64,000 nt of DNA from Blasia pusilla (GCA_050084515.1 CM114271.1:30380001-30444000); one strand, 5' to 3'. Numbered from the stretch's first letter, positions 1-63,090 are shown. Numbers and translations are program-made. Notes: generated from the sequence alone by a model not told the origin.

Positions 1-2479
1 CATCACACTCTAGTGCAAACTTCTTGCTCGACGCGGTTACACATGCTCAGTGGCTAAGCGTCGAAGCTCCTCAATCAAGCCCCAAAGCGACACCTCTCCT
101 CCTTGGACTGATACGGCTACTATGACACTCCTCTCCATAGAAATGTCAAGAACAGGAGTATCCTCTGCGTGGACATGTCCCTCAATCAAATCACTAGGCC
201 AAGTGATGGCACTGCTAAATGCTGCTAAGGTCGCCATCTCTCCACGCCGTCGCTCGATCATTGCACCTGTGAATTGAATGGGTGATGACTTAAGGCGCCC
301 ATCACCTGACTGCCATCCTGGTCTGTAGGACGCTGACTATTCCCAATAATCAAGGGAAAACCCCATCGGGTATAAATATTGCTCCACCAACCAAGACGTC
401 GTAGGACTCTGCATCAGTCATTATTGCCTTGGCTTGCACCACGGACTGATTTGTAGGATGTCCCTGGCGAATCCTCACTATGACCTCCTGTCGGGTGATA
501 AATTGTGTGGTACTTGCTCCACCCAAGGATGTCTCTATCTGGAATGGATAACGCTCCACATTGGCTCTCCTCAAGCCTAATCCTCTTAATGACGCTTTCC
601 CCAACATCATGGGTTGTGCTCTTTAATCCAACAAGAGGCAGTGCGGACTAAAAGCTCTACCTCATGGACTCATCAACTGGAAGACCTCTCCCCGGTTATC
701 TAGCAAAAAAACACCAGGAGAAGCCATGGCACGCTCTATCGCGGGTCTAGCGGGCATTTCCGTCATCCTAGTAGTCGCAGCCTGCCATGAATCTTACGTG
801 GATAGTCCAAGCATCAGCTCTAAGGGCAGGTCCATCACCTCCTCTGCAATCACCTATGAACGTGATGCAAGAACTCCAACTCCACGCTCATATAGCCTAG
901 CGGCCAGCCTCGGTGGACGTACCTCCCAACGTCATAACATCGGAAGCAGAAAATAAAGGAGCTCGGTACACAATGGTGGTCGCCCCCAACAACGTGCTCG
1001 ACACATGCCCCTCCTGAGCATCAGCAATAGGAGTCGTCGCACTCGCTTCTCTCATCGCCCTCCATGCCTGCACACCAACAACATCACCAACTCTCGAGGA
1101 ACTCTGATAAGGACCCATCAATGGGGTTCTCATCGCCTAGGACAACGTGAAAGACTAAGGAAGCCTAGTCTGTTACTTGGCTTTCCCTCGCTATGGATCC
1201 AACTCTGCGGCTGCTCCATGCATCACAACTGCATTGGCCTCCATTTGGGCAACTACGCACATCTAACCAAGATCCTCTATATCTCTGGATGCTCCATATG
1301 ATGTCGATGCCACGGATCTGGCATCGGGTAACCTCAATTCCATAGCGGCAATCTGCTCCTCTAGATGCTGTATCCGAGTAGCCATCCCAGCCTCATGCCG
1401 AGCGTCTCCCTCAACACGTCTAGGTGGTGGGACTCTACCTCCTCCATGGGCAGATCCACCACCCTGTCGGGCAACTCCAGCTCCTTGTCCCCCAACGGGA
1501 CCACCTGTTGGACTATCTCTAGGCACACGTGGATCGGCTACTCGCTCTGGTGCCCTCTCTGGCCCTCGGTCCGGACGTAACTCAGGGTGTAAACTAAAAC
1601 ACGTGGCACATGTGTGACCATATCTCTGAAAATAGTCACACTGATAACCTCTTGGTGCATGTTGTGCGTATATATATCGCTACACAACATACATCGTTGG
1701 TCACATCTATACCACACAACATCGATCTTCTCCCCACACGGGTAGATCCAGACATGTATAAAAATTAACTCATACATATACATGGAGATCACACAACAAA
1801 AATAAAGAGTAGTAAAAACGGCACACTCGGCCTAAAACTCCACTCCTCAATCTACATCGGCATATCGAGCCTCGTCCACCCTACGTTATCAAGGAATCCG
1901 GACGCTAGCACCCTAGTCCTATCTCACACACATACAAGAGAGGTCCTCCAACGGCCCAACATAAGAAAGATGCCTTAGGAAAGCCATCTTCCTCTCTTAT
2001 ATAGGGTTGGGCTCTTCCTCTACAAATATCCATCCCCTTGGTAACGTGTACGCACAGGTTACGAGGGGCGGGTGACCTAGTCAACAAGTCACCCGGTTGT
2101 GAAAGACCTAAACAGGAAAGTTGTCAGAAACAATATTTTTGACACAATGGACCTATCCTCAACCTCATCTGATAGAGTGGGACAAAGTTACACTCAAGAT
2201 AGTCCGCTGGCTCCTACGTCCTATCCACGATAGATCTCGGCCTATTGGCTCCTTAGATGTGATAGTTGTCCTGCGTATACATATCGCTACACAACATACA
2301 TCGTTGGTCACATCTACACCACACAACACTGATCTTCCCCACATACGGGTAGATCCAGACATGTACATAAATCAACTCATACATATATATGGAGATCACA
2401 CAACCGCCCCCCTAGTTGGCACTTGGATTCCCCTAACTCCAGATAGAAAATATCACATCTCTTTGACATGACCTACTAC

Positions 2480-3890
2480 CCTGTACACATCTCGGACACA
2501 TCCATCGTCTCGTGGGAAGTACATCAGGAGGGGGATTCAGACATAAAATATGCCACCCTCAAGAACAACCATCACATACCAACATGGTGGCTGCATCCCT
2601 CTCAGATCCGCACAACATACACCTCAAGCCTGCATGTACCACCGCCAAGCTCGAATCCACTGTCTCATCTACGTTTGGAAGATGACATGGTGCACAATTG
2701 TGCACATGATCCTTCCAAACCATACCAACCCGTCCCTCCAACATGAGGACTCCGGTCGGTAATACCTTGCGCCCACGTAGGATCGTGTGCCCTGCAGTGA
2801 CATCTAGCGTCGTGGGTGCCGCCTGCTATAAATACACGTAATCTCCTAATCCCTGGACGATAACCTCCTCCACGAATGGTTGCATACCTCAATGTACTAA
2901 GCACACGATCTAGAAATACATAAGTTGTTCCTTCGCTTGCCTTGTCCGGTAGTGCCACCAACTCTATCCACTTGGAGAAATGCTCCACCATGACCAACAC
3001 GTACTTATGATGATGCCCCGTCAATGACAAAGGTCCCGCAAAGTCTAAATTCCACTGATAATCTAAACCCATAATCGGCAAAGGATGTAACTGCGGAGTG
3101 GAAGCATTGAAGGATGCTCGCACTGTGTCACATACCATACATCTGGCCACAAACTGTTGTACGCGAGTATGCATGCCGCGCCACCAATAGTGAATCTAGA
3201 GTAAGCTATAAGTATGCTTCACTCCAAAATATCCCAACTCCTCATGGGCATGTCGCACTACACGTGCTCCTTGGGAAGGATGAGGTACCACTCGTATCCT
3301 ACCATCTCTCCATACCCGCAAAATGTGAGTCTCCTCCCACCTGAACCTCATGGCTCTCTGTAGGATCCGATCCCACTCCCTAGCACTCATTGTGCTTGCT
3401 ATGACGCCAATGCGCAAGAACTCCACAACCTCCACGTCGTCATGGATATCACGACCACGTGTTGCCTCCTCACTGACATCCGTATCCAAAGACTCATCAT
3501 CCAACCCCACCACTGGAGTCATCACCTGCAACTGACCTACAATAGTCAACCAACAAAGATAAGCAGATGCATGCCAACCGGGCACCATCTCCTCATCATT
3601 TTCTCCGTGCCATCGAGCTCCTGTGTTGTCGCTCTGACTCGGACATGGGTTACAACTAAACCAATCCGCATCGTGGTTCAGCCAACCTGGCCTGTGAACG
3701 ACCTCAAACTCATACTCCTGTAGTAATAGAGCCTACCCAGCAAGCTTTCTCGTAAGCTTGTCGGACTCCATCAACCACCTCAACGGCTGATGATCAGTGA
3801 TAAGTGTGAAAGGGTTGCCAAATAAATAGCACCTGAAATGTGCCACGGCCCACAGTGCAGCCAAGCACTCTCCCTCGTAGGAGGTGTACT
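2480..3890 (-). pseudogene. E1 RNase H C-terminus, DDE integrase and C-terminal PHD finger (frameshifted)
   Basis: SYEGECLAALWAVAHFRCYLFG/TDHQPL (RH); HAHEELGYFG...CMVC (HHCC); LDFAGPL...VMVEHFSKW (integrase core); CMLCG...MLVCDGC (PHD). Confidence 0.88.
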
Positions 3891-4974
3891 TCACCTCTGC
3901 AATGTCCTCTGTGGCTCTTGAGCAATCAGAGGCGCTCGTGGTCCTCTCCCATGCTGTGTGCAGTCTCTTTGCCTATGGGCCCCTCCACATGTCCAACAAG
4001 ACAACATCGATCCCTGTTGGGCAACATATGTAGGTATGGGTCGTTGCCTCATAGGCTCACGGTACCCCGCCTGCTCTCTCGACACACTCGCCCGCTCCGG
4101 TGGTACTGGTGCTCGCTGTGGCACTTGTGGGGTCATCGTCGCTTGTGGACCAGTCAACTCTCGAGAAAATCCATCGGTCACTACGTGCTCCTCACTCATG
4201 TTAAGCTCAATACGTTCAGACAACTTAAAGACCACCTTCAATGTGGGCTTCGCTGTGTGAATCAACACCGTATCTTCGACTCTCCTCCGTAGTTCTCGGT
4301 CCAGAATCCTGTACCAATACTAGACTGATTGCGCCTCAATCACTCCATACGTAGCAATGATGAGCCTCCTCAGGTGCATGAATGCCTCTCACAATCTCAC
4401 TCGATCGTCGTTGAAAATCTTGTAGACTCTTCAGCTTGTCGGTGCGTACGCCCTGGTAGCTCTTCCCCAACTGTCAGAAGAACTCCACTATGGGACTAAA
4501 GTTGGGTGGCCCTCTACCACCAGAGGTCTCTGCCACATTGCCAGTCTCACTGCCCTCCTCTCCATCTAGTCTCCGGGCTGATGGTGTGGGTCTCTCTCCT
4601 CTCACGATCCCATCATATGCCTCGCGACCACTAGTGGACACATACCCTGGAGCCCAATACATCCTCCAGGCATGAATCTCTACTGAATATAGTGATCGAA
4701 ACTCCATGTAGTCATCCATTGGAGGACTCTCCAAGTGCTGGAACAACCCCTTCCATGCCATGAAAGGGTTGAATCGTATCGGGGTCCGTATCTCCTGGAA
4801 GTCGCACCACGTGTCAAACTTCTGGATAAAATCATCTAAGTTGATGGTGCCCACTGCACCTGAGGAACAACACATGCCCCGATGACCCATGTCGTCCATC
4901 TCTTGCCAAGTGATACTGCCTCCGTTTGATATCTCGTCACCAGACCCCATGTCTAGTGATGACGATCCAGCCAC
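3891..4974 (-). pseudogene. E1 gag (degenerate) with CCHC zinc knuckle
   Basis: ORFs 4474..4974 and 3891..4268 contain CWTCGGAHRQRDC and are nearly identical to the gag at 51276-52200. Confidence 0.8.
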
Positions 4975-7900
4975 GGATGGATGTCGAGGTAGCTCCTCAC
5001 TCGTAACCTCTCAGTATCTCAATCCACTCCGTGTCACACCACTACTACTGCTCGCACTACCCCGTTCTTCCGAACCGTGGAAGAATGCCGTGATGACAAC
5101 CCTGTCTCACCTGCTCAAGCACTCAGACTCACCAAGAGTCTCCTACACTCCTCACTAGCTCACCTATTCTAACGTCAATCCCGTGATGACACACTTGGCC
5201 TCACGCACACTCAACACTCGGGCTCACCATAAGCCTCCCAACTGACTCACCTAACCTAGCGACACTCTTGGATCATACATGCGACCCCTACTCGGCAACC
5301 ACCGTATATCCACCACATGGTACACATGAAAAGAGTCTACACTTGTCATCATCACTACAGCCACCTAGCACCAGCTACTACCTGATACCCAACACTCTCA
5401 ATCACACACGAGAAGTGCGGAAAAAGGGACTCGAATGGGTAACCTAATCATTCCCATCAACCTACTGCACCGTTAACATCCCCTCCTCCATGTAATATGA
5501 TGAGGTAAGGGATGGCCCCGTGGCCGACTCCGCGCCCCATCCGCCTCCGCCTAAAATATGCCCTAGGTGCCTATGACCTAACCAAACCTAGCTGACCTCC
5601 TCAAGGCGACTGCAACTCCTACATGCTCTTTCCTTACACACCCGCTTGCATACACTCGACGCCACACTGCATGCTACACTTGGCTGTTGTCCCCCGTCAA
5701 TCTGCAACAAAGAAATCTGCAAAAAATGGACAGCGCTTTCGCGCACAGCCTTCTGAACACAAAATGACCAACAAAAAATGCCAACCAACGTCTTCAGGGC
5801 TTCCTACCAATGCAACTCGCTTGCCTACCTGTAAACAACAAATTCCCACCAGCCCCTTGACATCTTTCTCATGTAAAAATAAAGAGTAGTAAAAATGGCA
5901 CACCCGGCCTAAAACTCCACTCCTCAATCTACATCGGTATATCAAGCCTCATCCACCCTACGCTATCAAGGAATCCAGACGCTAGCACCCTAGTCCTATC
6001 TCACACATATACAAGAGAGGTCCTCCAACGGCCCAACACGAGAAAGATGCCTTAGGAAAGCCATCTTCCTCTCTTATATAGGGTTGGGCTCTTCCCCTAC
6101 AAATATCCATCCCCTTGGTAACGTGTGCGCACAGGTTACGAGGGGCGGGTGACCTGGTCAACAAGTCACCCGGCTCTGAAAGGCCTAAACAGGAAAGTTG
6201 TCAGAAACAATGTTTCTGACACAATGGACCTATCCTCAACCTCATTCGACAGAGTGGAACAAAGTTACACTCAAGATAGTCCCCTGGCTCCTATGCCCTA
6301 TCCACGATAGATCTCGGCCTATTAACTACTCAGATGTGACATGCAGCACCATCTCCTCCGCCACGCTGAGGCACACGTCCATGACCCTAATGAGTGCAAT
6401 CGCGCTCATGATGGGCTCTACCACATGACCAAAAAGTAATCGTATGCCGCTGCTGCTAAGCCGCATATGAAAGCGCAGGTCTCTATGGCACGGCCTCCCG
6501 ATATCCTCCTTGAGCTCGTGGTGCCACAGTCAACCTATCTCCGAGTCCACGTTGCTGCACAGGTGGTGAAGACTATCATGTCAGCTCTCGCCCAAAACCC
6601 ATGGCGGCTACGCTCTCCTCCGCCATGTTGCGCTCAATATTCTCGGCGGTCCTAAAAACATCTCTCAACGTAGGGGAGGTGTTCATAAGAAGCACCCCCT
6701 CCCGCACTCATGTCCGCAGGGTCCGGTCCAGCATCACGTACCATGAGTGGATAGCTTGAGCCTCTGTCACCCCCTGAGTGACGTTCATCAACCGGCGCAA
6801 GCGAGTGTAAGCCTCAGGCAAACTCTTACCCGGGCGCCTCTGGAAGTCATGGATGTTCTGCAACTTCTCCGTCCGTACCCCCTGGTAGCTCGCCCTCAAC
6901 TCAACGAAGAACTCAACCACGGGGTTGAACTTGGGACGAACCCGACTAGATGGTGGAGCTTCTCCAGTGTGAGTGACCCCTCCTAAAACATCACTGGTGG
7001 AAGAGGAAGTAGCCTCTCTTGACTCCTCCTCCTCATCTGGGAACGGCTCCGTCCATGACACACACTGTGGGTCATAGTAGAGTCGCCATGCCTCAATCTC
7101 TTGGGCATATCCAAATCTCGCGAGTAATCCATCAATCACTCAAACTAAACATGCGGCACTCAATCTACACTCTCTCACTAAGACGTGTGTTGTGCGGAAA
7201 CAAGCAGCGTGGTGCGGAAAATCAACTGATCTATCGTCTTATCGACAAACCATCCTCAACCCTGGACATCCCACACAAGTCTATGTCCCCTAAACCCATA
7301 CATCATCGATTCTCTCAACATTAGCATAAAACCCAATATCCCAAATAACTTCCCAATACTCGGAAATCCTTCACACGTGCAGGGTAAGAAACCAGAATGG
7401 GTAAGTTGACAAGAATGTCGATGTCGCTCCTCGGCAACTGCAAATCTCGACCCCAACTTGATCGTGAAGACAACTCCTCCAATCAGCAAGTCGTACTCCT
7501 CTTGTACTAACGCTGCTCAAACCTCCTCAATGTGCGGTGTAGGTCCAACGGTCTGGTGCGGCACTAGCGGCACGGAACGGCTACAAACAGTACGTCACTT
7601 GGGAATGGGGTACGGCACTCGGCGGCATACCCTCCTCAATCAGCAATTCACAAGCTCCGCTCCTTAGTAAAGGAGCGGCTCCGCGATCGAGATGGTGCGG
7701 TGCGGCCACGATTGGCATGGCGCGGCAATCGGCAGCGCGTTGTGGCTATGGGCGTCACTTCAAGATACTCGATCGTCGTCAAGCGGCTTCCAATCATAAC
7801 ATGGTAGCATGAAATGAAAACTCAAACACCATAACCCGAGGTCACCTACCATCACTGATTGATGATGAAACTACGATGACGGTGGTGGCCAAAATAAAGT

Positions 7901-8799
7901 ACGTGGTGGCGGCGCAAGTCAGAGAATCAACGGTCGTTGTGGAAGACCTTCCACTCCGTAATAGCGGCAATGGCAACCAAGGGTGGACAACGCTCGATGG
8001 TGGACCATGGACCATTCACGGTGACGATTGACCGTTGATGATGATGGTTGACCGTCGATAGTGACTATGACGGCGACAGCCGCCGTCGGCACGGCGGGTG
8101 GTTTAGGGTTTGAACAATTTAACCCTAAAAATTACCTAGCAATGGCAGTTTTGCAAGATTAACCATAACTTCTTGCTTACAACTCCAAATTATGCACTGT
8201 CTATTGCACAACATGCACAACTTCATGACCTATGACGACATCATAAATTGTTTTCAATCAGGAATTCTTGTAAAAATTGACGGGGACTGTCGTAAAGCCC
8301 AACGTCTCTTTCTCCTACACAAAATTTGGCAGCACTTCCGCGCTAATTTCTCCCCAAAAAAAGTAAGACCTATGAGAACACAAATCAGCAAGCTACATGG
8401 TGCTCTCGAGAGCACTGGCATGAAGCAATCCTTCCCCATACTCAATTCCTATCGAAAATTGGCCAGCGCTTCCGCGTGCCAATCTCCCGTACAAAAAATC
8501 AGCAAAACAAAATAGCAAACTCGCACGGCTCTTGCTCCGGTGAGCACTCCCATGAGCCATGAAGTGGGGAACACGGTCCCCCAACCATGAAGCTCCCCCA
8601 TGAAGCTCTCTCACTCACTCATTCTTTCTTTATAGAATAAGATCCAATCTCTCTCACAACACCATAGTTCTCACATGTCTCTCTCAATGTCAAACCAAAC
8701 CCACTCTCCTAATGAGAGGCTTGGGTTACACTCATAAGGCAACGGACCATAGCTCCGCCGCCTCATGCCAAGAGGTTCAAAAAATAGAGAATAAGATCT

Positions 8800-8803
<4 letters not shown>

Positions 8804-8888
<85 letters not shown>
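8804..8888. repeat. (CT)n microsatellite inside the A repeat of E0
   Basis: Pure CT run; the paralogous copy at ~29745 has only a short GA run. Confidence 0.95.
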
Positions 8889-8890
<2 letters not shown>

Positions 8891-10289
8891 TGAGGTTTAC
8901 CCCTCCCCTCTATCATGACCATACATATTATGTCGTAGAGTATAGTGTGCTAGTAGAGGTCATACCTTATGTAGGGCCGCAGTGTCTAGGTAGAGATGCG
9001 ATTTCATACATAGGGTTGGGGTTACTCAGTTGAGGGTGAGTTTTCTAGTAGGGCCCGCTCTTAGGTTGGAGGATATAAGATGGAGTGCACTCAAAGAACA
9101 GTCAATTCTTTGAGTTGAGCCTGTTGCGTTGGGAGTTAGCCTTGGTAGTGAGTAGAGCTCTTGGCTATGGTGTTTCCGCAAGCTTCGACCTAGATTCTCC
9201 CATCGTGGAGTGGGATTGTATGTGATTCTACACGTGTTTTATGATAGTAGGTCTTTCACAAATTTCACTCAAAGAACTGGAGTCGATCGATGGTAGCTTC
9301 GATTGTGGATCAGTAGGATCTTGTTAGGGCTGATTTTGTACTCGGCCGTGGATGTTCGTGGCTTGTGGCCTATGTTGGAGGTTTCAATCTGGTGTGTGAT
9401 TGGTTGGGAAAGAAGCGCCTTGTTGAGAGCTTTGCAATGTGCTTTAGATCGCCGGATTTCGTCAAGGGAGTTGGAAGTTATCAAGGATTGAAGATTCTGG
9501 TTCGTGTTTGACGGTTTTCTGATGCGGAGAGCTTGGAGTGCGGAAGCTCTGTTGAAGTTCATCCAGATCGGGTGAGAGGTTCCTGTTGCTTCTTGTATTG
9601 TGATCTCATGTGAAGCTATCTGCTTGAGTGTGTGGAGCGTTGCGGATTTCTGCGTGCATGGCGGGCGGAAGCGCCGGCGGATTTGCGATCTCGGAGGTGT
9701 ATGGACAGCAAGTTTGTCTGATTTTTAGCTCGGAGTACAGAGCTTGGTTGTAGCTGATTTTTTGTGGAGAGATAGCTATGGTGGTCAATTGAATTTTGGT
9801 TGAAATAGATTCAATTTTGGTCAAGGATTTGTGAAGTAATTGGTGATCAAAATTTTGTGGACTAGCTCAAGGTCTAGCTATGGTGGACTGCGGATCGGAG
9901 GGGCTGGTTGGTTTGTGACTCGTTCATTGTTGGAGACGCCTATCCCATTGGGGGCACCCTGGGTGGGCCTCTCTCCATAGTGAAGCATGGCGAAGCGTGG
10001 CGAACGGGGCGAGACTTTTTGGAGGGTAATGTTTATGCTATGGATTCTCCAATGCATGAGGAGGTAGAGGAGGTCCCTATTTCTGCAGCAGTGGCATCCT
10101 CATCGTTGGATGTGCCACTTTGGAGTTCAGGCGGTGCACAACGGCAAGAGGCTGATTGCCTAGTGCAGGAGGCTGGGTGTGAGGCTGTTATACCTCACGA
10201 GGAAGAGGAGGCCCCACGGCGGACTCCTACTTCTGGTCCACTTGGGTTATCCCCTTTGGATACTACACCCATTGTATGGCAGTATCCGC

Positions 10290-11260
10290 CGGAGGGCATT
10301 TGTGTGTTAGATCTCTTTGGTGGGATTAGCACTGGTTTGGCTACAGTGTTGCAGGCCGGTATTCTTGTGCGGAGATACGTGTATGTGGAGCGAGATGAGA
10401 CGGCCCAGAGAGTCTCATCCCGACATATCGGTCAGTTGATGCGGAGATATCCTGAGTTGTTGCCGCCATTAGCTATTCGTGGGTACCAGCGTGCTTTGCC
10501 GTCACACATTGCATTGTTAGGGGCGCAGGACCTTGAGAGGGTTGGTCTTGTGGATTTGGTGATTGTTGAATGGCCATGTCAGGGTCATACACGTGCTGGT
10601 CGTGGTGAGGGATTACACGACCCTAGGTCTCGATTGTTTTGGGAGATGTTACGGGTGTTACGACATCTTCAAGTTCATCAGGCACGTGCTCTAGCTTACA
10701 TTCTGGAGAATGTTCCATTGTTGGGTGACACTCGGACCCAGATGATGGCGAGTGTTCATGAGGTGCGGTCTTGGATTGGACCAACGGTGTTGTTGGATGC
10801 AGCGCGAGTTGGCTCACGTGCACATCGTCCACGCTTGTGGTGGACAAACTTGTTGCCTAGATAGGTTCTACGTCGAGCATATGATGTAGTGCAGCGGGAT
10901 CCTTGCCTTACAGTAGATAGTATCTTGGATACTGGGCGACTTTCTCATGTGGTGAGGGTTATTGATCGGTCACCCATGGCGGTGGTAAACCGTGTGGGCC
11001 AGCCTAGGATGGCACTACCCACATTTGTGAGTTTTCCCTCGTCACATGCATACAGGGAAGGTGGTCCCGGGCTTGTATGGGATTCTCATGTACGACAGTT
11101 GGTGGAGCCTAACGCTGATGAGAGACAGCGTGCGATGGGATTTGCTACTGGTGTGACAGCGGTTGCTTCCATTTCTAAGGCTTCACGACGTCATATGTTG
11201 GGTTAGGCCATGGACCTGAATTGTTTGACTTGGATTTTGAGTCTTGGTATGGCCGAGCAG
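10290..11260 (+). pseudogene. DNMT3-like C5 cytosine DNA methyltransferase domain within the E2 pol region
   Basis: Motif I VLDLFGGIST; motif IV DLVIVEWPCQG; motif VI ILENV; motif VIII AHRPRLWWTNL; motifs IX/X ERQRAMGF...RRHMLG*AMDL. In-frame TAG stops at 10862 and 11204. Confidence 0.9.
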
Positions 11261-11497
11261 CGTCGACTTTGGACTATGTATGTGGGTCTTCCACCCCTTG
11301 TAATGAGCTCGATGGCTACCGGGACGGTAGAGGCATCGGTTGGGGGCGAGGAGAGTAGTATTTTGCATCCTTGGAGTAAATGAGATGTAATGGTTGGGCA
11401 TGTGAAGTTGGTTGCTCATGCTGGTGGTGGAGTTATTTGCTCAGATGATGGTGTAGCTAAGGGTGTACCATCTTGTGAGGGGGTTGCGTAGTAGCCA

Positions 11498-12846
11498 ATG
11501 GCATCGTCCTCTCCCTCTAGTGTGCCAGTAGAGGAGACTTGGGAGCCATTACTTAGGCCCAAGCTTACGGGAGGTGAGAAACGATGCTTCACACAGTTCC
11601 TACGTGCTTATAGGAGTTGTTTTGCCTTTAGCATGAAAGAGTTGGGTTCTCTGGTTGGACCCGGTATACGGATTCATTTGGCTAGTGATACGCCAATCTT
11701 CCGTCGTCCCCACCGATATAGTGATATGGAGAGGGACCTGATTCAGAGTAGGACGTTGGACCTTTTGGAGGCTGGATTAGTGGAGTTGTCGGCAGGAAAG
11801 TGTAAGTTCTTCCATGAGGATGTTGAGTACTTGGGTCATGTGATTTATCCAGGTGGTTTGGGAGTTCAGCAAGCAAAGATGGAGGCTATTGCCCTTATTC
11901 CGTGTCCGGTAGATGTGAGTAGAGTTCGGGCATTCATGGGATTGGCGAACTACTATCGAAGGTATGTGAAGGGATTTAGTGCTATGGCAAAGCCTTTGAA
12001 CCAATTGCTGAAATCAGATCAAGAGTGGCAGTGGGGAGATGATCAGGAGAGAGCTTTTGTGGAGCTTAAGGCCCAATTGGTGGCGGCGTCTATCTTGAGG
12101 AGACCTATCAGAGGGTGCCAATTTCAGTTACAGATTGATTGGAGTAGGTTGGGACCTGGAGCGGTGTTGACACAACATGATGATGAGCACATGGAGTTTG
12201 TGGTGGCCTATGCAAGTCGTTCGAATAATGCAGCGGAGTCGCGCTATAGTTCATATGAGGGAGAGTGCTTGGCAGTAGTGTGGGCTGTGGCACACTTTAG
12301 GTGTTACTTGTTTGGTACAGAGATGTGGATGAGAGTGTGTTCTCATCGGGCAGAGCTCTTTCGGAGAGTTATGCCAACAGCCTTTGAGAATCTTGCCATT
12401 GCTCAACACAGGGATACGTTGCGATATGCAACCATTCGGGATGGAGGTTATCGACCATCTATTCATAGGTTCCATGTGGGGAACTATGTCTATTTGCAGC
12501 AGATTGCACCGACAACGTTGGATGTGACGGCAGGCCGCACTATTTTACGAGTGCGCGAGGTGTTAGCTTCTGGAGTTCTCATATTGGAGGGTCGTGATGG
12601 AGTTATTTGGAAGGACCATGTGCGTAATGGTGCGTCATGTCATCTTCCAAATGTGGATGGTACTGTTGACCCAAGCTTAGCCATGATACGTGCTAGCTTG
12701 AGGTGCATGTTGTGTGGAGTGCTAGCTAACGCTTGGCCCGTATGTTGGTGTGTGATCGGTGTTCTAGGGGTTGGCACATGATGTGTTTGACTCCACGTAT
12801 GGATTTTGTTCCTACTGGAAGGTGGGTTTGTCCTCGATGTACTTAG
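11498..12846 (+). pseudogene. E2 partial RT, RNase H, integrase C-terminus and PHD finger (two internal deletions)
   Basis: PIFRRP...LLEAGLVE fused directly to KCKFF...EYLGH (RT core lost); VRAFMGLANYYRR; VAYASRS...SYEGECLAVVWAV; integrase core missing. PHD CMLC...CDRC...WHMMC...WVCPRC* at 12704-12846 (one frameshift). Confidence 0.88.
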
Positions 12847-15800
12847 GAGGGGTAGATGACTTGATCTTTGCTTGATATGGATTACAAATGTGCGACTAAC
12901 GATGGGGCAACCTAGCACCCGGCCTTCTCATTCGTGCACCCAAGAAGGTGTATAGCATGTAGTAGATGTATAGGGCTACAGGAGTTAGAGGACCTAAACT
13001 TGATTAGGGGGCGAGTTGTGGTACACTTGTGTTTGTGGATGCTCTTGTCTATGTTATGTATGTATGTGAGTATGGTATGTCAGCGATGTATGTTGTATGA
13101 CGATGTGGATTCGCACGACAAGTGTCATGACCACACAGATTATGTCGTAGAGTATAGTGTGCTAGTAGAGGCCATACCTTATATAGGGCCCCAGTGTCTA
13201 GGTAGAGATGCGATTTCATACATAGGGTTGGGGTTTACTCAGTTGAGGGTGAGTTTTCCAGTAGGGCCCGCTCTTAGGTTGGAGGATATAAGGTGGAGTG
13301 CACTCAAAGAACAGTCAGTTCTTTGAGTTGAGCCTGTTGCGTTGGGAGTTAGCCTTGGTAGTGAGTAGAGCTCTTGGCTATGGTGTTTCCCGCAAGCTTC
13401 GACCTAGATTCTCCCATCGTGTAGTGGGTTTGGCTCGATTGTATGTGATTCTATACGTGTTTTATGACAATAGGTCTTTCACGGATTTCACTTGTGGTAC
13501 ACTTGTGTTTGTGGATGCTCTCGTCTATGTTATGTATGTATGTGAGTATGGTATATCAACGATGTATGTTGTATGACGATGTGGATTCGCACGACACCTC
13601 TCCCAAGCTCTCTCCATGGTAACCTATGCTCCCAAGTCACCTCCTTGGCTCTTGACCTGATGTAGGACAATCAAAGGCCATTTACTAAAATAGAAAGTCA
13701 ATCATATACTCAAAATGATACTCACCTAAAATAGTAAGTTCTTTAATATGGCTCCAGATAAGCCAAAACAAAGGGGAAACCTACTCTCTCAGGTTTCCCT
13801 GGGCCTCAGTAGGTCATCCTTAACCTCTTGAGTCTGTCCTCCACTACTCGCGAAGGCGCTCTACTAGATCTCACTGATCTATCCTAAAAGACGTGACATC
13901 CATGTAACGAAGTTACAAAAGGATGCAAAGAGGATATTTCCTTAATCCGTATGTGGCACGGACACTGACTAGTAGCTACTAATGCATAGCCTATGTTGGT
14001 GCACAAGACCAATCATGGCGAATTTTTTTAATTTTTTTGTTACCCACGTTACAAAAAACTTTTCATGCTGCCTATTGCCTTGTTTTAATTTAGGAGATGT
14101 TTGTAAATCAAGAAACTGCTCTCCCACAATATTATACTAGTGTATAGCCTATGTACGAGACCCATCATGATTAAAAAAGTAAACAAAAAAATCATTCTTA
14201 CACCACTAGCATGTGGCAATTAAAAAAAAATGTGTTTACAAATTAAGAGAACTATTCCAACAAAAAAATATCTACACTAATATTTTAGAACCATGTCTTG
14301 TACTGCTTGCTTGAGCAATTGACACTTGGATATTTTGACCAATGCCAACCTGCCACATGTCCCATATATCTTAGGGTTACTCAATAGTCATTTTTGGGGA
14401 TAGTTCAAGTTAGTGGGTCACATTTTAAAGATTTTAGAGTAATAGGGCGTCTCATATAGAGGGATGTAAGTCTTGCAATGTCTTTTGGGTGTTTGACTAT
14501 AAAACATGGACAACTTCCGTCTATGCCAAGGGATATTTGATTTTATTAGATGTCGTACTATGCATATTGCATGCCCACCTCTTCCACCACCTCGCATTCT
14601 AGCCATGGACACGACATCCATGATTATGACCTAAAGTTTGAGACGTCCTAATGATGGGTAATCTACTCATGATTGCTTGTGGCATCTACTAGTAAATTAG
14701 TATAGCAAACTAAGATTAGAATCTACCAAAATTTTCTTTATATATGCATTCTACAAAATAGGCACCAGGAATAATAAGGAATCTTAGACTGTGTTGTGAG
14801 TGTCAAACATCAAGATCCCTTTTTCTTCTTTCTATTTTTTGCATTTGTAGTGGAGGGGAGGTGGTCCTTCCTATTTACTTCGGGGCAAGTGAAACATTAC
14901 AACATCTTACAAATTAAAAAACTCTTTGACCTAAGAATGGGCCACATTGAGACCTAAGAGACTCACCCTAATCTTATGGAATCTCCCGTAGCCTACTTAG
15001 AACCATCTATTTCATTGACCGAGGTCGAGGTTAAACACTCCCCCTCCCAATTGCTCACACATGCCAATTTAATTGAGAGTAATCCATATTATAGTGGGTG
15101 ATCTTACTTGCATAATAAAACAAAATATCAACAAGATACTATTTTGTCACTTAAGGTGGCATGTTGGTAGGAAAATGATATCATTGGAGGAAGTAATAAG
15201 ATATCCAGTAATGGAGAACTAATGAACGGGAGGAGTGGGGTTCAAGAAAAACCTCAACTACTCAATATTTTTTTAAATAATTTTGTGGAAAACCTTCTTT
15301 TTAAACTTAACATGGGCATGTTAACAAGTTAAGTCGAGAGGGGCTTAAACGTACTAGGAAAAGAAAAAGAAGGGGAAACAATTTCTCCCTCGGCAACCCA
15401 ACTAGACCTTTGTGTCGAAAGGTAATTTTAGGGATGCTCGGGCGTCCTAGAGAGGAAGAAGAAAGTAAATTTTAATAGAAATTGGGACGCAAAACTCATC
15501 GAGATACAAAGGAGGGGGGTGTAGAGAGGCAAAAAAACCCACGGGCATATATCGACCTCGGAGAAACAGAAAAATATTTCTCCTTTAACGACCAAAATCA
15601 CCAACAATAAACAACAACAACACTTATAGAATTATGGCTGTTACTAAGCGGACCTCTAGCATTTAACGCCAATGGCCACTTCGTAGTAGCCATAGCTCGT
15701 TACCCATCGGAAGTACAAAAGAGGGGGACTCAAAGAGTCAAAACCTGAAGGCCACAACAAGACCAGAAAAGGAAGAAAGGGCATTCCCCCAGACGAAACT

Positions 15801-28849: not shown

Positions 28850-29841
28850 AATGGTATGGTTTGGAAAGATCTTGTGCATAACTATGCGTCATGTCACCTT
28901 CCCAACATTGACGGTATAATTCATCCGAGCTTAGAAATAGTTTGTGTATGCTTGAGATATGTATTGTGTGGTTTTTCCCTTGGTGCAACCATTGTGCTTG
29001 TGTGTGATGGATATTCGAGAGGGTGGCATATGGCATGTTTAACGTTACCTCTCACTAGGATTCCTCAGGGACGATGGATGTGTCCCACATGTACATAGAG
29101 TAGATACTAGGTAGTTATGCATTCCAACTTGTATTTGTGATATGGATGACAAGAAGACGATTAATGATGGGGCCACATAAGCACCTGACCTTTTGGCTCT
29201 TCGTGTCCTAGAGATGTATGTCATAGTAGGTAGGAATAGATGGTTAATATTTGGAGTTAGAGGGACCTAATCACGAGCTAGGGGGGAAATTGGAGATATT
29301 TTGGTACTCTATTGTCTCGATGACATTGTTTGGATGTCATAAGTTGAGCATGGGATCCTGTGTGTTTATGTATTTATTTGGTAACAATGATGTATATTGA
29401 ATAGCAATGTGTATGCGCACAATCACTGTCACATATTTTAGAATATATCGATAAGTCTATAGTAGAGTGTCTTCAAGGATAGTGGAGGATAGTCTCAAGA
29501 GTTTGAGGATGACCTGTTGAGGCCACAAGTAACGTGAGAGAGCAGGTTTCCCCTTCATTTCGGCTCATTTGGAGTCATGTACAGAAACTTACTATTTAGA
29601 GTAAGTCACCATTTTGAGTGTAGCTGACTTCCCAATTTGGAAAGTGGCCCTTGACCTCCTACAGCAGGTCAAGAGCCAAGGAGGTGACCTACGAGCATAT
29701 CTTACCGGGGAGAGAGTTTGAGAGAGGGAAGGGGACATACCAAAGGAGAGAGAGCTTTGTAACTCATTCTCTCTTTGTTGAACCTCTTGGCATGAGGCGG
29801 TGGTGCTATGGTTCTTCTTGTATGTGGATTTGGTTTGACAT
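28850..29841 (+). mobile_element. 3' remnant E3 of the same Gypsy group: integrase C-terminus, PHD, PPT, B1, start of A2
   Basis: [19 protein letters not shown]...[13 protein letters not shown]...WMCPTCT*; PPT AGGGGGGAAA at ~29280; B ~29290-29425; A from 29427 (TGTCACAT) is homologous to the 5' end of E0. Confidence 0.8.
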
Positions 29842-48581: not shown

Positions 48582-51500
48582 GTTTTCAACATGACTCCCA
48601 AAAATTAGCCCAAAATTGAAATTTTCACTTAAGATCCTTTCATACTACGTCCCTACAAGAAACTCCGCCCCTTATTTCCTAAGACCAATCCCATGGCATA
48701 CACTTGTCTTTCTCTAGTCTTCTGATTAGCTAGTCTGTAAATATATAGTTCGCTTTGGTGTGTCTTACCAAAGTTTATCCTCCTTAGACCAATGATTATG
48801 ACTTGCTTCTTCGGTCCCTATATATTAGCATAGAGTTAGCTATTTGCGACGTTCATGTAATCTTGTTCTATCCATTTATATCTACGATATGAGCTAGTAT
48901 CGTATCTATATACTAGTTCTTCTTACTCATTGGTATTTCCACCATCCCAAAGGTGGGAAGTGGAGCCACGAGGAGATCTAGGTACAATTGAGATTTTTTT
49001 TGTTGGGATTTGAGTCTTTTTCAAAGTGAGTTAAATAGTGTCATACTTCAAAAATGGTACTTCACTTGGTTTCCCATTGAAGAAGCCATAGCAACTAGGT
49101 TGCAACATTGTAGAACATTAGGTTTAGGTATAATAACTCGGAATCCATAGAGTTATTATACCTAAACTCTACCATTGGAGAATATGTTGCCCAATTCATT
49201 TGATCTACTGAGATATAGTTTCATAGATATCCCTCAAGCACCAAGTTTACTTGTTCTGCTTAACCCAAAGTGTTCAATTGGTGACCTAAACATAAGAGCA
49301 GATCTGTTTCGAGTGCTTCAACAAACATATCTTGAACTTAGAGACAAACTTGATGTCATGATCATATATTAGTTCATTCAATAAGCCCGAATATATATCT
49401 CAAAATATGGTCGAGATACTTCAATGATTTAATTACATTTTGAGTCAGAATGAGAATTCCCATTTTAGAAAATCAATCTACTTCCATTATTAAGATTGAA
49501 TTAAATCCTTTCAACTCAAATCCCCATGATGAAATCTATGTCACATCTGAGTAGCCGATAGGCTGAGATCTATCGTGGATAGGGCGTAGGAGCCAACGGA
49601 CTATGTTGAGTGTAACTTTGTCCCACGGTATTGGATGAGGTTGAGGATAGATCCATTGTGTCAGGAATGTCCTTTCTGATAACTTTCATGTTGAGGTCTT
49701 TTACAGTCGGGTGACTTGTTGACCAGGTCACCCGCCCCTGGTAACCTGTGCGCGCAGGTTACCAAGGGGAGGGCTATTTTTAGGCTCTTCCCAACCCTAT
49801 ATAAGAGAGGAAGATGGCTTTCCTGAGCCATCTTTCTCATGTTGGGCCGTTGGAGCACCTCCCTTGTATGTGTGTGAGATAGGACTAGGGTGCTAGCGTC
49901 CGGATTCCTTGATAGCACAAGGTGGACGAGGATCAATATGCCAATGTAGATTGAGGAGTGGAGTTTTAGGCCGGGTGTGCCATTTTTACTACTCTTTATT
50001 TTTACATGAGAAAGATGTCAGGGGGCTGGTGGGAATTCATTTTTTGCAGGTAGGCAAGCGAGTTGCCTTGGTTGGGAGCCCGTGGAGACATTGGTTGGCG
50101 TCGTATTTGTCATTTTTTTGTGCTCGGAAGGCCGTGGGCGGAAGCGTTGTCCGTTTTTTCTCAGATTTTGTTGGTGCACAGGGATTGGGGACAACGGCAG
50201 AGTGTAGTACGGAGTGGGCGTCGGGTGTACGCGAGTGAGTATCGAGAGAGAGAAGAAAAGAGAGTTAGGGCTTGCAGCCGCCGGGGGCACTGACGGGCGT
50301 TTAGGTCGGCGGGCGGCGACGGCGCGCCCCCTCCCCATTTATTGCTTCCTCCCCAAAAGTTGGGGAGGCATATAGGGTGCGGGCCAGCCCCCGCATTTAG
50401 GGCCCAAGGGGCCCGCATAGGGCCGCGGGCCAGGTTACTCCCCCCTCCAACGTGGTAGGACGGACGAGGTCGGTCCGGCGAACGTGGTAGGGCACGGACA
50501 GATGTGGTCAGTCGGCAGAGGTCGTTGAGAGTCCGGATGTGGTGGGGGTCATATTCACGTGGTCGGACAAGGCATACGTGGTTGGAGTGGAGCCCGACCA
50601 GGGTGAGTCAGGTTACATGCCGCGTGTGGGGATGGACGGAGATGTTTGCGTGACATGATGTTTTTGGGGCCCGACAGGGCGTTGCGAGAGTTGACGATGG
50701 AGGGGCAGTGCGCATGATGCCGACAGGTTGTCCGCATCTGTTGACGGGAGGATCGACGTGTTTGTCGAGGAGAGTGTTGTGTTGCGGAGATTGTCATATC
50801 ACGTGGAGGAGTGCATGTTGACGGTGCAGTAGGTTGGAGGGCGTGATCAGGTTACCCATTCGAGTCCCTTTTCCCGCACTTGTCGTATGTGATTGAGAGT
50901 GTTGGGTATCGGGTAGTAGCTGGTGCTTGGTGGGTGCAGTGATGGTGACGAGTGTAGATCTTGTTCATGTGTAGCACATTGGTGGATATACGGCGGTTGC
51001 CGAGTAGGGGTCGCGTGTATGACCCGAGAGAGTGTCGCTACGTTAGGTGAGTCAGTTGTGAGGCTCATGGTGAGCCCGAGTGTTGAGTGTGCGTGAGGCC
51101 GGGTATGTCATCACGGGATTGATGTAAGCATAGGTGAGATAGTGAGGAGTGTGGGAGACTCGCGGTAAGTCTGAGCCCTTGAGCGGGTGAGACAGGGTTT
51201 GTCATCACGGCGTTCTTCCAGGGTTCGGAAGAACGGGGTAGTGCGAGCAATAGTGGTGGTGTGACATAGAGTGGAGTGAGATACCGAGGGGTTACCAGTG
51301 AAGAGCTACCTCGACATCCATCCCTGGCTGGATCATCATCACTGGACATTGGGTCTGGTGACGAGATCGCAAACAGAGACAGTAGTACTTGGCAGGAGAT
51401 GGATGACATGGGCCATCGGGGCATGCGTCGTTTCTCGGGTGCAGTGGGCACCATCGACTTAGATGATTTTATCCAGGAGTTTGACACATGGTGCGACTTC

Positions 51501-52549
51501 CACGAGATACGGACCCTGACACAGTTCAACCCTTTCATGGCATGGAAGGGGCTGTTCCAGCACTTGGAGGGTCCTCCGATGGATGACTACATGGAGTTTT
51601 GATCACTATATTCACTAGAGATCGATGCCTGGAGGATGTATTGGGCTCCAGGATATGTGTCCACTAGTGGTCGCAAGGCATATGATGGGATTGTGAGAGG
51701 AGAGAGACCCACACCATCAGCCTGGAGACTAGATGGAGAGGAGGGCAGTGAGACACGCGATGTGGTAGAGACCTCTGGTGGTAGAGGGCCACCTAGCTTC
51801 AGCCCCACAGTGGAGTTCTTCCGATAGTTGGGGAAGAGCTACCGGGCATGCACCGACAAGTGAAGAGTCTCTGTGGATTTCGGTGACGATCGGATGAGAG
51901 TCTGAGAGAGGCATTCACACGCATGAGGAGGCTGATCATTGCTACGTTTGGAGTGACTGAGGCGCAGTCAGTCCAGTATTGGTACGGGACTCTGGATCGA
52001 GAACTACGGAGGAGAGTCCGAGATGCGGTGCTGATTCACACAATGAAGCCCACATTGAAGGTGGTCTTTGAGTTGTCTGAGCGTATTGAGCTTAACATGA
52101 GTGAGGAGCAGATAGTGACCGCTGGATTTTCTTGAGAGTCGACGGGTCCACGAGCGACGCTGACCCTAGAGGTGCCACAGCGAGCACCACTACCACGAGA
52201 CACTAGAAGAAATGGGTGGTTTTTATGACTAGTCTTTAAATGACTCAATGAAAGAATGACTCAAATTATGACTTAAATGGTTTAGTCATAACATTTAAGG
52301 TTCGTATAACTCACCTAGTCATCTCCTCATGACTAAAGTAGTTATCAATACCCTTTAGACATCACGAGTCATATTTGTTTCACTTGGGTAGTAATTATGA
52401 GTCGTAAAAAATGACTGACGTGTTTAAATGATTTAATGTTGCAATGTTACCGTGTTTCCTAATCATATTGGGATATAATTTCGTACCCATTTTTAAATTT
52501 TTATTCTTAGACACAAATATTTCTTTCTTTGTGTTCTTCTTTTCGATTT

Positions 52550-54100
52550 TTCGGAGGGGGGAAAAGGAGGTGTGATTGATGAGGACGAGAGCTTTGATTC
52601 TTTCAAGTCCTTCGGTGATTTCATGATATAATGAAGGTGTCTATTCTTCCTATCATTCGATGGTGCTCAAACTTGGCACAAAATCCCTCAAAACCTTCAA
52701 CGGTTTAGATCTTCCATTTTCGCCCCCATTCTTATTCAACAAATTAAACACCCTTTTTAGGGTTTACGATTTTTAATTCCATGTGTGAGTGGTAATTTGA
52801 AGTTTTTTCTTTTCCCCTGTGTTCCTTGGGTGGAGGTGCTCCTATGGGAGAAGTTTCCTGATTTTTGGACCCTTCCTTGATGGGGGAGGGGGGAAAAAGG
52901 GGTTTTGTGGAGAAGAAAGAGGGCTTTGAGTAGGATTCTTTCGAGTTATTGAGACATTTCATGTTAATATGAAGGTAAATCTCCTATCAGCCATTAGATG
53001 CTGAAAAAATTGGCACCAGCCTTGGTACCTAGTGCCTCAAAAATTACAACGGTTCAGATCTTCTTATTTAGCCCCATCTCATTCAAAAAACTAAACATCT
53101 TGTTTAGGGTTTACGATTTTTAATTCCATGTGTGAGTGGTCATTTGAAGTTTTTTCTTTTCCCTTGTGTTCCTAGGGTGGAGGTGCTCCTATAGGAGAAG
53201 TTTCCGGATTTTGGACCCTTATGGAGGGTGGAGGGTAGAAAAACAGGGGTCAAGGAGGAGGACAAGGGCCTTGAGTAGGCTTCTTTCGAGTCCTTGTGAC
53301 ATTTTCATATTATCATGGATTTAACTTTTTGTCCCACCATTGGACGGTGGTGCAACTTGGCACACACCAATTTCTTAAATCCCTCCACATCTTCAACGGT
53401 TCAGATCTGCCAGTTAGCCCTCCATGCTCAAACAAAAAATGAAAGACCAATTTTAGGGTTTACGATTTTTAATTCCATGTGTGAGTGATCATTTGAAGTT
53501 TTTCTTTTGCCCTCTATCCTTGGGTTAGGGATGCCACCCTCAGAAATGTTTCATGGTTTTTGGATCCCTTGTGAAGAGTGGAGGTAGAAAGAAGCGCCAA
53601 GAAGGAGGACAAGGGCCTCAAGTATGATTTTTTCGAGTCCTTGTCTTATTTTCCTGTTATTATGGAGTTAACTTTTGGTCCTACCATTGGATGGTGATGA
53701 AACTTTGCGCACACCAAGGTCTCAAGGTTTTCCACGTCTTCAATGGTTCAGATTTTCTAGTTAGCCAATCATGCTCAAACCAAAAATGGAATACCGGTTT
53801 AGGGCTTACGATTTTTAATTACATGTGTGAGTGATCATTTGGACTTTTTTCTTTTTTCTTGTGTTTATAGGATAGGGGTTCCACCTTGGGAAAAGTTTCA
53901 TTGTTTGTGTGCCCCTTGTGAAGGGTGGAGGGTAGAAAAAGAGGGTTGAAGAGAGGGATTATTTTGAGTCCTTGTGGTATTTTCATGTTATCATGGAATT
54001 AACGTCTCGTCCCACCAGTGGATGGTGCTGAAACTTGGCACAAGTCAATGCATAAAATTCCTCCACAACTTCAACGGTTCAGATTTTCCAATTAACCCCC
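52550..54100. repeat. ~347-bp tandem repeat, about 4.5 diverged copies
   Basis: TTAGGGTTTACGATTTTTAATTCCATGTGTGAGTG recurs at ~52757, 53104, 53453 and 53799. Confidence 0.88.

Positions 54101-54643: not shown

Positions 54644-54736
<93 letters not shown>
54644..54736. repeat. (CT)n microsatellite, followed by a ~125-bp tandem duplication (54760-55020)
   Basis: Direct reading of the sequence. Confidence 0.95.
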
Positions 54737-54739
<3 letters not shown>

Positions 54740-56644: not shown

Positions 56645-57300
<656 letters not shown>

Positions 57301-62429: not shown

Positions 62430-63090
62430 GAGGAGGGTGTTAGGGTGTTAGATCTCTTCGGAGGGATTAGCACCGGATTGGCTGCACTATTGCAGGCGGG
62501 CATACGGGTGCATCACTACCTTTATGTGGAGAGAGATGAGACCGCGCGGCAAGTATCATTATGTCACGTGGCGAGATTGGTCCAGAGGTATCCTGAGTTG
62601 TTGCCGGGATCTCAACATACGCTACCCACCGACATCTCTTTGGTGGGGGCGCAGGATCTGGATAGAGTTGGCACCATTCATTTGGTGATTGCTGGATGGC
62701 CATGTTGGGTCACGTGCCCATCATCCACGACTGCGGTGGACGAACCTGATACCATGAAAGGTACTGAGTCAAGCATACGGTGGAGTCCAGAGAGCACCAC
62801 ATCTCACAGTGGATGCTATTTTGGGCTCAGGGCGTCGATCTCAGGTGGTGACACGAGATGATAGACCACCGTTGGCCATGGCCAATAGGGTGGGGGAGTT
62901 GAGGGCAACCTTACCTACATTGGTGAGCTTCCCAGCATCCCATGCCTTTCGTCAGGGAGGGCCAGGCATGATTTGGGATGAGGTGACCGGAGCATTGGAG
63001 GAGCAGGGATGATTGAGGCATCCCGGAGACAGGTGTTGGGGCAGGCGATGGACCTTAAGTGTCTCACATGGATAGTCAGCCTAGGTATGG
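62430..63090 (+). pseudogene. Second DNMT3-like methyltransferase domain (E4), between PR and RT; motif VI region deleted
   Basis: VLDLFGGISTG; HLVIAGWPC; then a deletion joins to VGSRAHHPRLRWTNL; RRQVLGQAMDL. Confidence 0.88.

Follow-up and report, generated by a model that had tools for sequence, protein, structure and literature searches.

Split direct repeats in a DNMT3-carrying Ty3/Gypsy lineage of bryophytes: an element of Blasia pusilla and its relatives

The repeat order A1-internal-B1-A2-B2 is found in PAT, Ngaro, TOC1/TOC3 and SymbioDIRS-Dnmt3, and by implication goes with a joined or circular intermediate. As set out in PMC8969392, members of the DIRS order carry a tyrosine recombinase and make no target site duplication (TSD). 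Here we describe E2, a retroelement with the same repeat order, located in a 64,000-nucleotide (nt) stretch of Blasia pusilla DNA (GCA_050084515.1, CM114271.1:30380001-30444000), which we call the window and in which positions are counted from the first letter. In contrast to the DIRS order, the lineage of E2 has a DDE integrase, a 4-bp TSD and TG..CA ends.

The combination of Gypsy domains with DIRS-like repeats is already in print. For KnitGypsy-Dnmt3 of Klebsormidium nitens, de Mendoza et al. 2018 (PMC5890265, legend of Fig. 4c) give a DIRS repeat structure together with Gypsy domains; the combination is therefore not new, and the initial annotation of our locus, which knew of no description of it, is superseded on this point. 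That annotation had also overlooked the C5 DNA methyltransferase domain of E2, the very feature that ties it to the KnitGypsy-Dnmt3 kind. According to the published description, KnitGypsy-Dnmt3 resembles the E2 lineage in its Gypsy Pol with an embedded DNMT3-like domain, its A-coding-B-A-B repeats and its streptophyte host. It differs in that this host is an alga rather than a bryophyte, and the likeness drawn here is one of description; no Klebsormidium protein is among the named matches. The main text of PMC5890265, to which our comparison is confined, gives no TSD, primer-binding site (PBS), polypurine tract (PPT) or mechanism for KnitGypsy-Dnmt3. Literature searches on this layout in bryophytes and on split repeats in Gypsy elements returned only de Mendoza et al. 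2018, and supplements may hold more. A 2025 paper repeats that DNMT3 sits in streptophyte long terminal repeat (LTR) elements (PMC12344493).

Other parallels concern priming and integration. Self-priming is described for Tf1 and Tj1 (PMC4600332), and Neumann et al. predict it for the Tcn1 clade, moss and club-moss elements (PMC6317226). As these sources describe them, Tf1/sushi and plant Tcn1 elements have no tRNA PBS and a post-LTR sequence complementary to the region of the transcript start, as the E2 lineage probably does, and they too count mosses among their hosts, but they have two ordinary LTRs and mostly a chromodomain, whereas the E2 lineage has split repeats and a C-terminal PHD finger. 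Furthermore, integrase is reported to cleave palindromic LTR-LTR junctions (PMC1905944, PMC1180852), and the two-LTR circles of HIV-1 and foamy virus hold, like the E2 lineage, a palindromic CA...TG junction in duplex DNA that integrase can open (PMC1905944, PMC1180852, PMC4372172). In the retroviral accounts this junction is a side product of ordinary ends, whereas in the E2 lineage every LTR contains it, with a spacer of 2 nt, and the element would be obliged to use it. What is new here is the 4-bp TSD, the putative self-primer, ends that are out of register, a single-B derivative and the PHD finger.

Repeat layout and insertion boundaries

E2 carries a single A repeat at its 5' end and a B-A-B block at its 3' end, with the following parts:

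8907-8910, plus strand: left TSD copy CCTC, from the empty-site paralog, contigs and reads
8911-9267, plus strand: A1, the sole repeat at the 5' end; starts TATCATGACC (TGTCATGACC in A2) and ends ...TTTCA
13006-13015, plus strand: polypurine tract AGGGGGCGAG, adjoining B1
13016-13120, plus strand: B1, with start TTGTGG and end CACGACA
13121-13122, plus strand: 2-nt spacer AG, which makes the junction ...GACA AG TGTC...
13123-13491, plus strand: A2
13492-13596, plus strand: B2, head-to-tail on the end of A2, with GACA at the insertion boundary; the insert ends ...CGCACGACA at 13596
13597-13600, plus strand: right TSD copy CCTC

By repeat search and BLAST, A1 and A2 (8913-9269 against 13125-13492) are 93.2% identical over 368 columns, and B1 and B2 (13016-13120 against 13492-13596) are 97.1% identical over 105 nt; BLAST found no further copies of A or B in the whole window. 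The start of A, T(A/G)TCATG, and the end of B, CACGACA, form a 6-of-7 inverted repeat with TG..CA termini. Empty sites come from several sources. A minus-strand paralog at 29427-29812, about 77% identical, is uninterrupted across the rejoined flanks. In 11 contigs of run X1, public data from the same organism, 8911 is joined to 13605-13610. Moreover, the 5' flank stands directly before 13597 in 77 reads of X22 and 173 reads of X23, two RNA raw-read runs with the same species label. The boundaries of E2 and its 4-bp TSD are therefore sound, and the start of A and the end of B, flanked by CCTC, are the true ends that the initial annotation had taken them to be.

The target DNA of E2 (8600-8910, 13597-13900 and 29427-29812) is itself repeated sequence. 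This repeat is transcribed in a read orientation opposite to that of E2, with a first-mate-plus depth of 74-128 over 13644-13800.

The layout recurs elsewhere in the window, in a second family:

1656-6345, minus strand: E1, second family with the same layout as E2, found by self-comparison and nested in a host element
49539-52200, plus strand: E3, an 88% relative of E1, with a 5' A at 49539-50003 and then directly the PBS ACATGAGAAAGATG; the 3' part is missing

Read on the minus strand, the 5' side of E1 consists of the TSD TGCA (6345-6342), A1' (6341-5875) and the PBS (5874-5861), and its 3' side of a PPT, B1' (2404-2267), AC, A2' (2264-1798), G, B2' (1796-1660) and the TSD TGCA (1659-1656). 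E1 is not alignable to E2 overall in the window self-comparison; the layout is shared. It sits within another element, E0, and the match of the related protein P0002 runs on across E1, from residue 320 to 334, which is a second kind of empty-site proof. In E3, the 5' A passes straight into an E1-type leader, with no B between them.

A DNMT-alignment scan of metagenome contigs matched 220 stretches. Relatives were confirmed in 136 cases, and the analysis retained the best 80 of these (loci with the prefix L); their ends were classified by BLAST and motif context, and many belong to E2's own superfamily. A 5' A is present in 25 loci, equal to 20 unique sites, all of which read flank, A, PBS. With E1, E2 and E3 there are 23 unique 5' ends, and B stands beside A in none of them. 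On the 3' side, complete PPT-B-NN-A-B ends, where NN is the spacer, occur in L014, L043, L052, L055, L058 and L067 as well as twice in the window, and the same block is interrupted by the contig end in L016 and L059. A further 12 loci have PPT-B alone at the 3' end (in L020, B without a preceding PPT). The initial annotation had proposed examining whether TSDs flank A1 and B2: an exact 4-bp TSD is present in 11 of the 12 elements having both ends (CCTC in E2, TGCA in E1, AAGG in L055, AATC in L067, TGTT in L015, TGTG in L022, ATTA in L046, TACA in L049, ACTA in L061, TACA in L077 and CACA in L030), and that of L020 has one mismatch. The integrase ends in the family are TGTCA...GACA. NN is GC, AT or AC in relatives of E2, with no link seen between NN and a copy's own TSD; NN and the nucleotide at the A2/B2 joint are mostly clade-consistent.

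A third family has the 3' layout PPT-B-GT-A-B (L019, 16966-17618), and its perfect 8-bp inverted ends meet as TCATGACA GT TGTCATGC; no 5' A was found in the L019 locus. A repeat pair in L010 (12619-13794) was set aside as an unrelated element with a tRNA-Met-type PBS.

The A...B-A-B layout, borne out by the repeat coordinates of E2, by E1 and by six complete metagenome copies, is a trait of the lineage and not an accident of the E2 copy. Its normal integrated form is A-PBS-internal-PPT-B-NN-A-B with a 4-bp TSD, and B is never at the 5' end. Ordinary LTR elements are defined in part by having two full LTRs, and in this the lineage falls short, since its 3' ends are B-NN-A-B or B alone and none of its 23 5' ends carries B. 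The initial annotation had set ordinary A+B LTRs at both ends against its own reading, and that arrangement is what these 5' ends fail to show. E2 might nevertheless have inserted as an ordinary element with an A+B LTR at each end and been rearranged later, by deletion of the 5' B and duplication of B before the 3' LTR; it is old (A1 and A2 are 93% identical) and has several internal deletions. We regard this as very improbable, because a like layout with exact TSDs is found in E1, L055 and L067, and a like 3' structure in L014, L043, L052, L058 and the third family of L019, next to the 5' ends without B.

Copies with a single B are derivable from the full form. L022 (single B) and L042+L043 (B-A-B) have both flanks in common, so at least some single-B copies are B1 x B2 deletions. 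Single-B copies in general look like later deletions of this kind, and others could be products of the assembler.

Coding content and the integrase

Between its repeats, E2 keeps only parts of a polyprotein:

9278-10010, plus strand: leader, ending at the first E2 deletion breakpoint; gag and protease are gone and the polyprotein match begins at 10013
10013-11434, plus strand: DNMT3-like C5 cytosine methyltransferase domain with FGG, PCQ and ENV motifs, frame broken (PF00145, 4.4e-7)
11540-12349, plus strand: N-terminal remnant of reverse transcriptase (RT), followed by the thumb of RT and by RNase H (PF17919, 7e-27), with a deletion near 11793 that removes the RT core
12350-12781, plus strand: C-terminal remnant of the integrase (IN) and a decayed PHD-like CxxC stretch, without a DDE core

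Marchantia polyproteins, found via the DNMT open reading frame (ORF), lie on the window in the order gag-protease (PR)-DNMT-RT-RNase H-IN, and their mapping leaves E2 without gag, protease, RT core and integrase core. One ORF of E2 (9878-10864) holds the C5 DNA methylase domain, and another (11495-12781) begins with the RT start, jumps to the RT thumb and RNase H, and jumps again to the integrase C-terminal remnant. Pfam matched only DNA_methylase and RT_RNaseH domains in E2, with no DDE core. The remnant at 12350-12781 gave no Pfam match, and this region is 69.6% identical to E1 2487-2896; the rve-bearing part of the relative P0020 matches elsewhere in the window, not in E2. RNA reads diverge before 10011 (42 and 38 reads) and before 11793 (88 and 73 reads). 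These reads come from fuller copies, and the points of divergence are the E2 deletion breakpoints 10011 and 11793. Given the missing gag, PR, RT core and IN core and the diverging reads, E2 is derived by deletion: it is a non-autonomous member, with internal parts lost, of a Ty3/Gypsy lineage found in bryophytes.

The polyprotein order of this lineage is gag-PR-DNMT3-RT-RNaseH-IN(H2C2+rve)-PHD. All named relatives of E2 are bryophytes, namely Marchantia polymorpha, M. paleacea, Calypogeia and Sphagnum, with identity up to 73%. PF00145 is present in E2 and its relatives; for the relative P0024, all 29 solved-structure matches are DNMT3A, 3B or 3C, and the relative P0007 has the domain order DNMT-RVT_1-RNaseH.

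The evidence on the integrase comes from fuller copies. L067, a complete split-repeat copy with the TSD AATC, encodes Integrase_H2C2 and an rve core (1e-10, 42.2 bits, over the Pfam cut-off of 32.6) and then a PHD finger, and ORF2 of L047 reads RVT_1-RNaseH-H2C2-rve. By tblastn, L055, L067, L043 and L016 are colinear with this ORF of L047, whose order RT-RNase H-integrase is that of Ty3/Gypsy Pol, and the coding space of L055 is colinear from gag to PHD, with the leftover space too small for a recombinase. The best solved relative is Ty3 Gag-Pol (7q5b, 3e-86). Of the claim in the initial annotation that E2 is a Gypsy element with a DDE-type integrase, the part that stands concerns relatives of the same layout (L067 and, with a truncated core of 23.4 bits, under the Pfam cut-off, E1); E2 itself has no DDE core. 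The search for a tyrosine recombinase that it had recommended gave no Phage_integrase (PF00589) match in any open ORF scanned.

Together, these domain comparisons support a Ty3/Gypsy lineage with a DDE integrase and without a tyrosine recombinase. Movement by a tyrosine recombinase, as in true DIRS, PAT and Ngaro elements, would suit the split direct repeats, but it is hard to credit beside the exact 4-bp TSDs in 11 of 12 elements, the TG..CA ends, the H2C2 and rve domains of L067 and L047, the fully assigned coding space of L055 and the ORFs free of Phage_integrase, and we consider it extremely improbable. Since no recombinase was found and a 4-bp TSD is present, the E2 lineage falls outside the DIRS order, yet it shares the split direct repeats.

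The polyprotein ends, after the integrase, in a PHD finger (PF00628, 5.1e-7; L067:10989-11621; window 2559-2825, minus strand). Chromoviruses carry a chromodomain at the position where L067 has this finger, and Pfam searches of relatives of E2 found the PHD finger and no chromodomain. A PHD finger together with a DNMT3 domain resembles the reader-plus-writer pairing of cellular DNMT3 enzymes.

Priming, transcripts and the register of the ends

Two primer sites can be placed relative to the repeats. The PPT adjoins B, not A: 18 of 19 related metagenome B-starts follow a G-rich purine tract, and 15 of those 18 tracts end exactly in ggggggcgag. At the other side, an internal stretch of A is complementary to the bases that immediately follow A's final CA. 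In E2 the parts are as follows:

9073-9079, plus strand: TATA-like ATATAAG in A1, a putative promoter element, with like geometry in E1/E3 and the L-family
9090-9114, plus strand: hairpin CTCAAAGAAC-AGTCAA-TTCTTTGAG, whose 3' arm (9106-9114) is the putative self-primer
9268-9277, plus strand: putative PBS CTCAAAGAAC, directly after the CA that closes A1

The self-primer duplex would span 14 nt in E3, 16 nt including G.U in E1, and 20 nt including G.U in L037, L055 and L010, and each of these was equalled by 0 of 1000 shuffles; weaker duplexes are found in L015 (11 nt, 20/1000 shuffles) and L030 (10 nt, 18/1000). Two families use different pairing sequences, CATCTTTCTCATGT versus ACATGAGAAAGATG in one case and CATAGTTCTTTGAG versus CTCAAAGAACTATG in the other. 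The geometry is common to both: the partner starts 29-33 nt past the TATA box, and from there 160-180 nt remain to the end of A. When both strands of the window were scanned for perfect 11-mer pairs so spaced, only E3 and one AT-rich pair came up. In an alignment of 16 copies the proportion of paired cells is 85.7%, versus 36-50% with the partners slid; both sides vary in 5 of the 14 pairs, and 3 of 500 shuffles reached the covariation score. Furthermore, minimum free energy and centroid folds have the first 14-15 nt closed onto the PBS.

No TGG follows A1 directly, the first lying 11 nt downstream, which agrees with the initial annotation in that no tRNA-type PBS adjoins A1. ARAGORN gave no tRNA gene to compare with the leader, either in the window or among 26 of the 80 loci. 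Priming probably needs no tRNA and is probably self-priming of the Tf1 type, and the complementarity of leader and A gives body to a possibility that the initial annotation had raised. A tRNA or other cellular RNA might instead prime slightly downstream, for example at TGGAGTCGATCG (9279-9290), with the pairing of A and leader serving packaging or dimerisation. The TGG 11 nt after A1 speaks for such a primer, as does a start site that is unproven, with read starts upstream of the putative self-primer. However, TGG is at no fixed place in relatives, where L-family leaders read ...CTATGTTTTTTGGGAGTAG; three families whose sequences differ all have a complementarity that sets in with the base immediately after CA; and the pairing partner keeps a fixed distance from the TATA box. 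We consider a cellular-RNA primer improbable.

Because the PPT adjoins the start of B and the putative PBS adjoins the end of A, we hold with high confidence that the LTR of reverse transcription is B-NN-A and that U3 begins with B. The initial annotation, which had seen B as a U5 moved behind the PPT, was mistaken here.

The RNA reads have one orientation between the leader and A2, B1 included, and, assuming libraries of the usual type, they represent the sense strand. At the A2/B2 border their first-mate-minus depth drops steeply, from 65.7/85.5 (13316-13479) to 4.2/2.5 (13480-13643). About one third of the RNA reads are partly aligned, and the assignment between A1 and A2 is noisy. From this fall in depth, B2 is barely transcribed. 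Read starts cluster at 13284 (21 molecules) and 9071 (5 molecules), the same position of A, and the cluster may be a true transcript start or a clipping of diverged reads. Odd joints also occur in the RNA: 12970/13063 leaves out 92 nt, among them the PPT and 46 nt from the start of B1 (10 and 7 reads), and 13440/13152 goes back 289 nt within A2 (3 and 4 reads). Both are probably from variant copies.

The ends of reverse transcription and the TSD-bearing ends of integration are out of register, a conclusion we also draw with high confidence. The TSD-bearing ends, the start of A and the end of B, stand back to back within B-NN-A (...GACA NN TGTCA...). The A2/B2 border consists of the end of A, the last G of the PPT and B (TTGTG...) in the L-family and E1, with C at that place in E2. 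In L030 (13493-13508) and L032 (5691-5706) the A/B joint holds a PBS copy plus 6 nt; this copy also has an inverted piece of A and is without B1. Errors of the same kind are seen at retroviral circle junctions.

The last ~40 nt of B are shared by E1 and E2 (13080-13120 versus 2306-2267 on the minus strand, 82.5% over 40 nt). This conservation suggests that the right integrase end has a cis-acting site of more than usual length.

Ends that are out of register imply an extra step between cDNA synthesis and integration. In the mechanism we propose, the minus strand would be self-primed at the end of A, in the Tf1 manner, and the plus strand would start from B, giving a cDNA with the LTR B-NN-A. 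Integrase would ignore the cDNA termini and use the start of A (TGTCA...) and the end of B (...GACA), which meet as CA-NN-TG; a staggered cut after each CA would leave two recessed CA-3'OH ends with 2-nt 5' overhangs, the normal processed integrase substrate. The A2/B2 border would then be the minus-strand origin joined head-to-tail to the plus-strand origin. The two termini of the cDNA would be linked, whether by circularisation or by template switching, and the junction beside the PBS would then open, either ahead of integration or in the course of it; the integrated copy would be a cDNA with its termini joined and re-opened ~110 bp further in, adjoining the PBS.

The 5' ends, 23 of them unique, led us to reject simpler forms of this scheme. 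None shows what ordinary integration through the termini of a B-NN-A LTR would leave. The symmetric two-LTR-circle model as it stands predicts A-B-NN-A-PBS as often as the observed form, and this arrangement was seen at 0 of 23. As a symmetric circle has two identical junctions, the step would have to be directional, or the route different.

One different route is a fully templated one, similar to that of DIRS or Ngaro elements, in which the RNA reads from A2 into B2 and extra jumps via B rebuild A...B-NN-A-B. No B-NN-A or A/B junction would then arise by end joining, and integrase would act on true linear termini. B2 does hold some sense reads (depth 4.2 and 2.5), NN and the joint nucleotide track clades, and such models have been drawn for tyrosine-recombinase elements of like layout (PMC8969392). 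Nevertheless, a PPT at B and a PBS at A would give B-NN-A LTRs by ordinary reverse transcription, no primer site was found at the start of A, RNA depth falls ~15- to 35-fold at B2, and the PBS-containing joint of L030/L032 looks like an end-joining error. We judge the templated route unlikely.

Several points weigh against the joined and re-opened cDNA, or against the evidence on which it is built. Opening at the second circle junction predicts the A-B-NN-A-PBS form missing from the 5' ends, and the clade-consistent NN and joint nucleotide fit template inheritance as well as precise re-formation in each cycle. The primer-PBS duplex of E2 itself is just 9 nt, was reached by 64 of 1000 shuffles and is weak alone, and ~35 nt separate the read-start cluster, at the TATA-like motif, from the putative primer downstream of it. 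Repeats may be mis-assembled in the metagenome contigs, most copies are decayed, and the single-B metagenome copies could in part be an assembler's collapse of the B-A-B loop. Moreover, the mechanism is drawn from integrated copies and RNA reads, with no cDNA intermediate among the data.

Taken whole, a deleted, self-primed Ty3/Gypsy copy with a B-NN-A LTR and a joined and re-opened cDNA is the best explanation, and we think it fairly probable. For the joined intermediate as a mechanism in its own right our confidence is short of even, and we put it forward tentatively. It is likewise a possibility that we hold with more doubt than belief that the integrase site has moved ~110 bp inside the LTR, such that each transposition must join the termini and cut the internal CA-NN-TG.

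Neighbouring elements and wider meaning

Other DNMT-Gypsy sequences lie at the two sides of the window:

52-1640 and 6354-7109, minus strand: E0, a third DNMT-Gypsy element, whose gag and downstream parts flank the nested E1; its 5' end was not found in 7110-8700
60750-64000, plus strand: E4, another DNMT-Gypsy polyprotein with PR, DNMT and RT parts, continuing past the window end; its 5' repeat was not located within the window

Additionally, long (CT)n microsatellites and, just past the truncated E3, a tandem array of period ~340-680 bp occur at 8797-8890, 54644-54741, 57067-57298 and 52553-54100.

The known range of DNMT3-carrying Gypsy elements extends with these copies from a charophyte alga to liverworts and mosses, and a PHD finger is added to their cargo. 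LTR finders will mis-draw such elements, calling A1 and A2 the LTRs and missing B2. In textbook LTR elements the ends of reverse transcription and of integration coincide, whereas the present elements include at least three families in which the two do not coincide, and integration via a joined-end intermediate, long shelved, becomes directly testable in bryophytes. If the proposed mechanism is true, the ‘circle-junction att site’ model of retroviral integration would be obligatory in a living lineage, and the split-direct-repeat architecture, so far a mark of tyrosine-recombinase elements, could arise in an integrase element.

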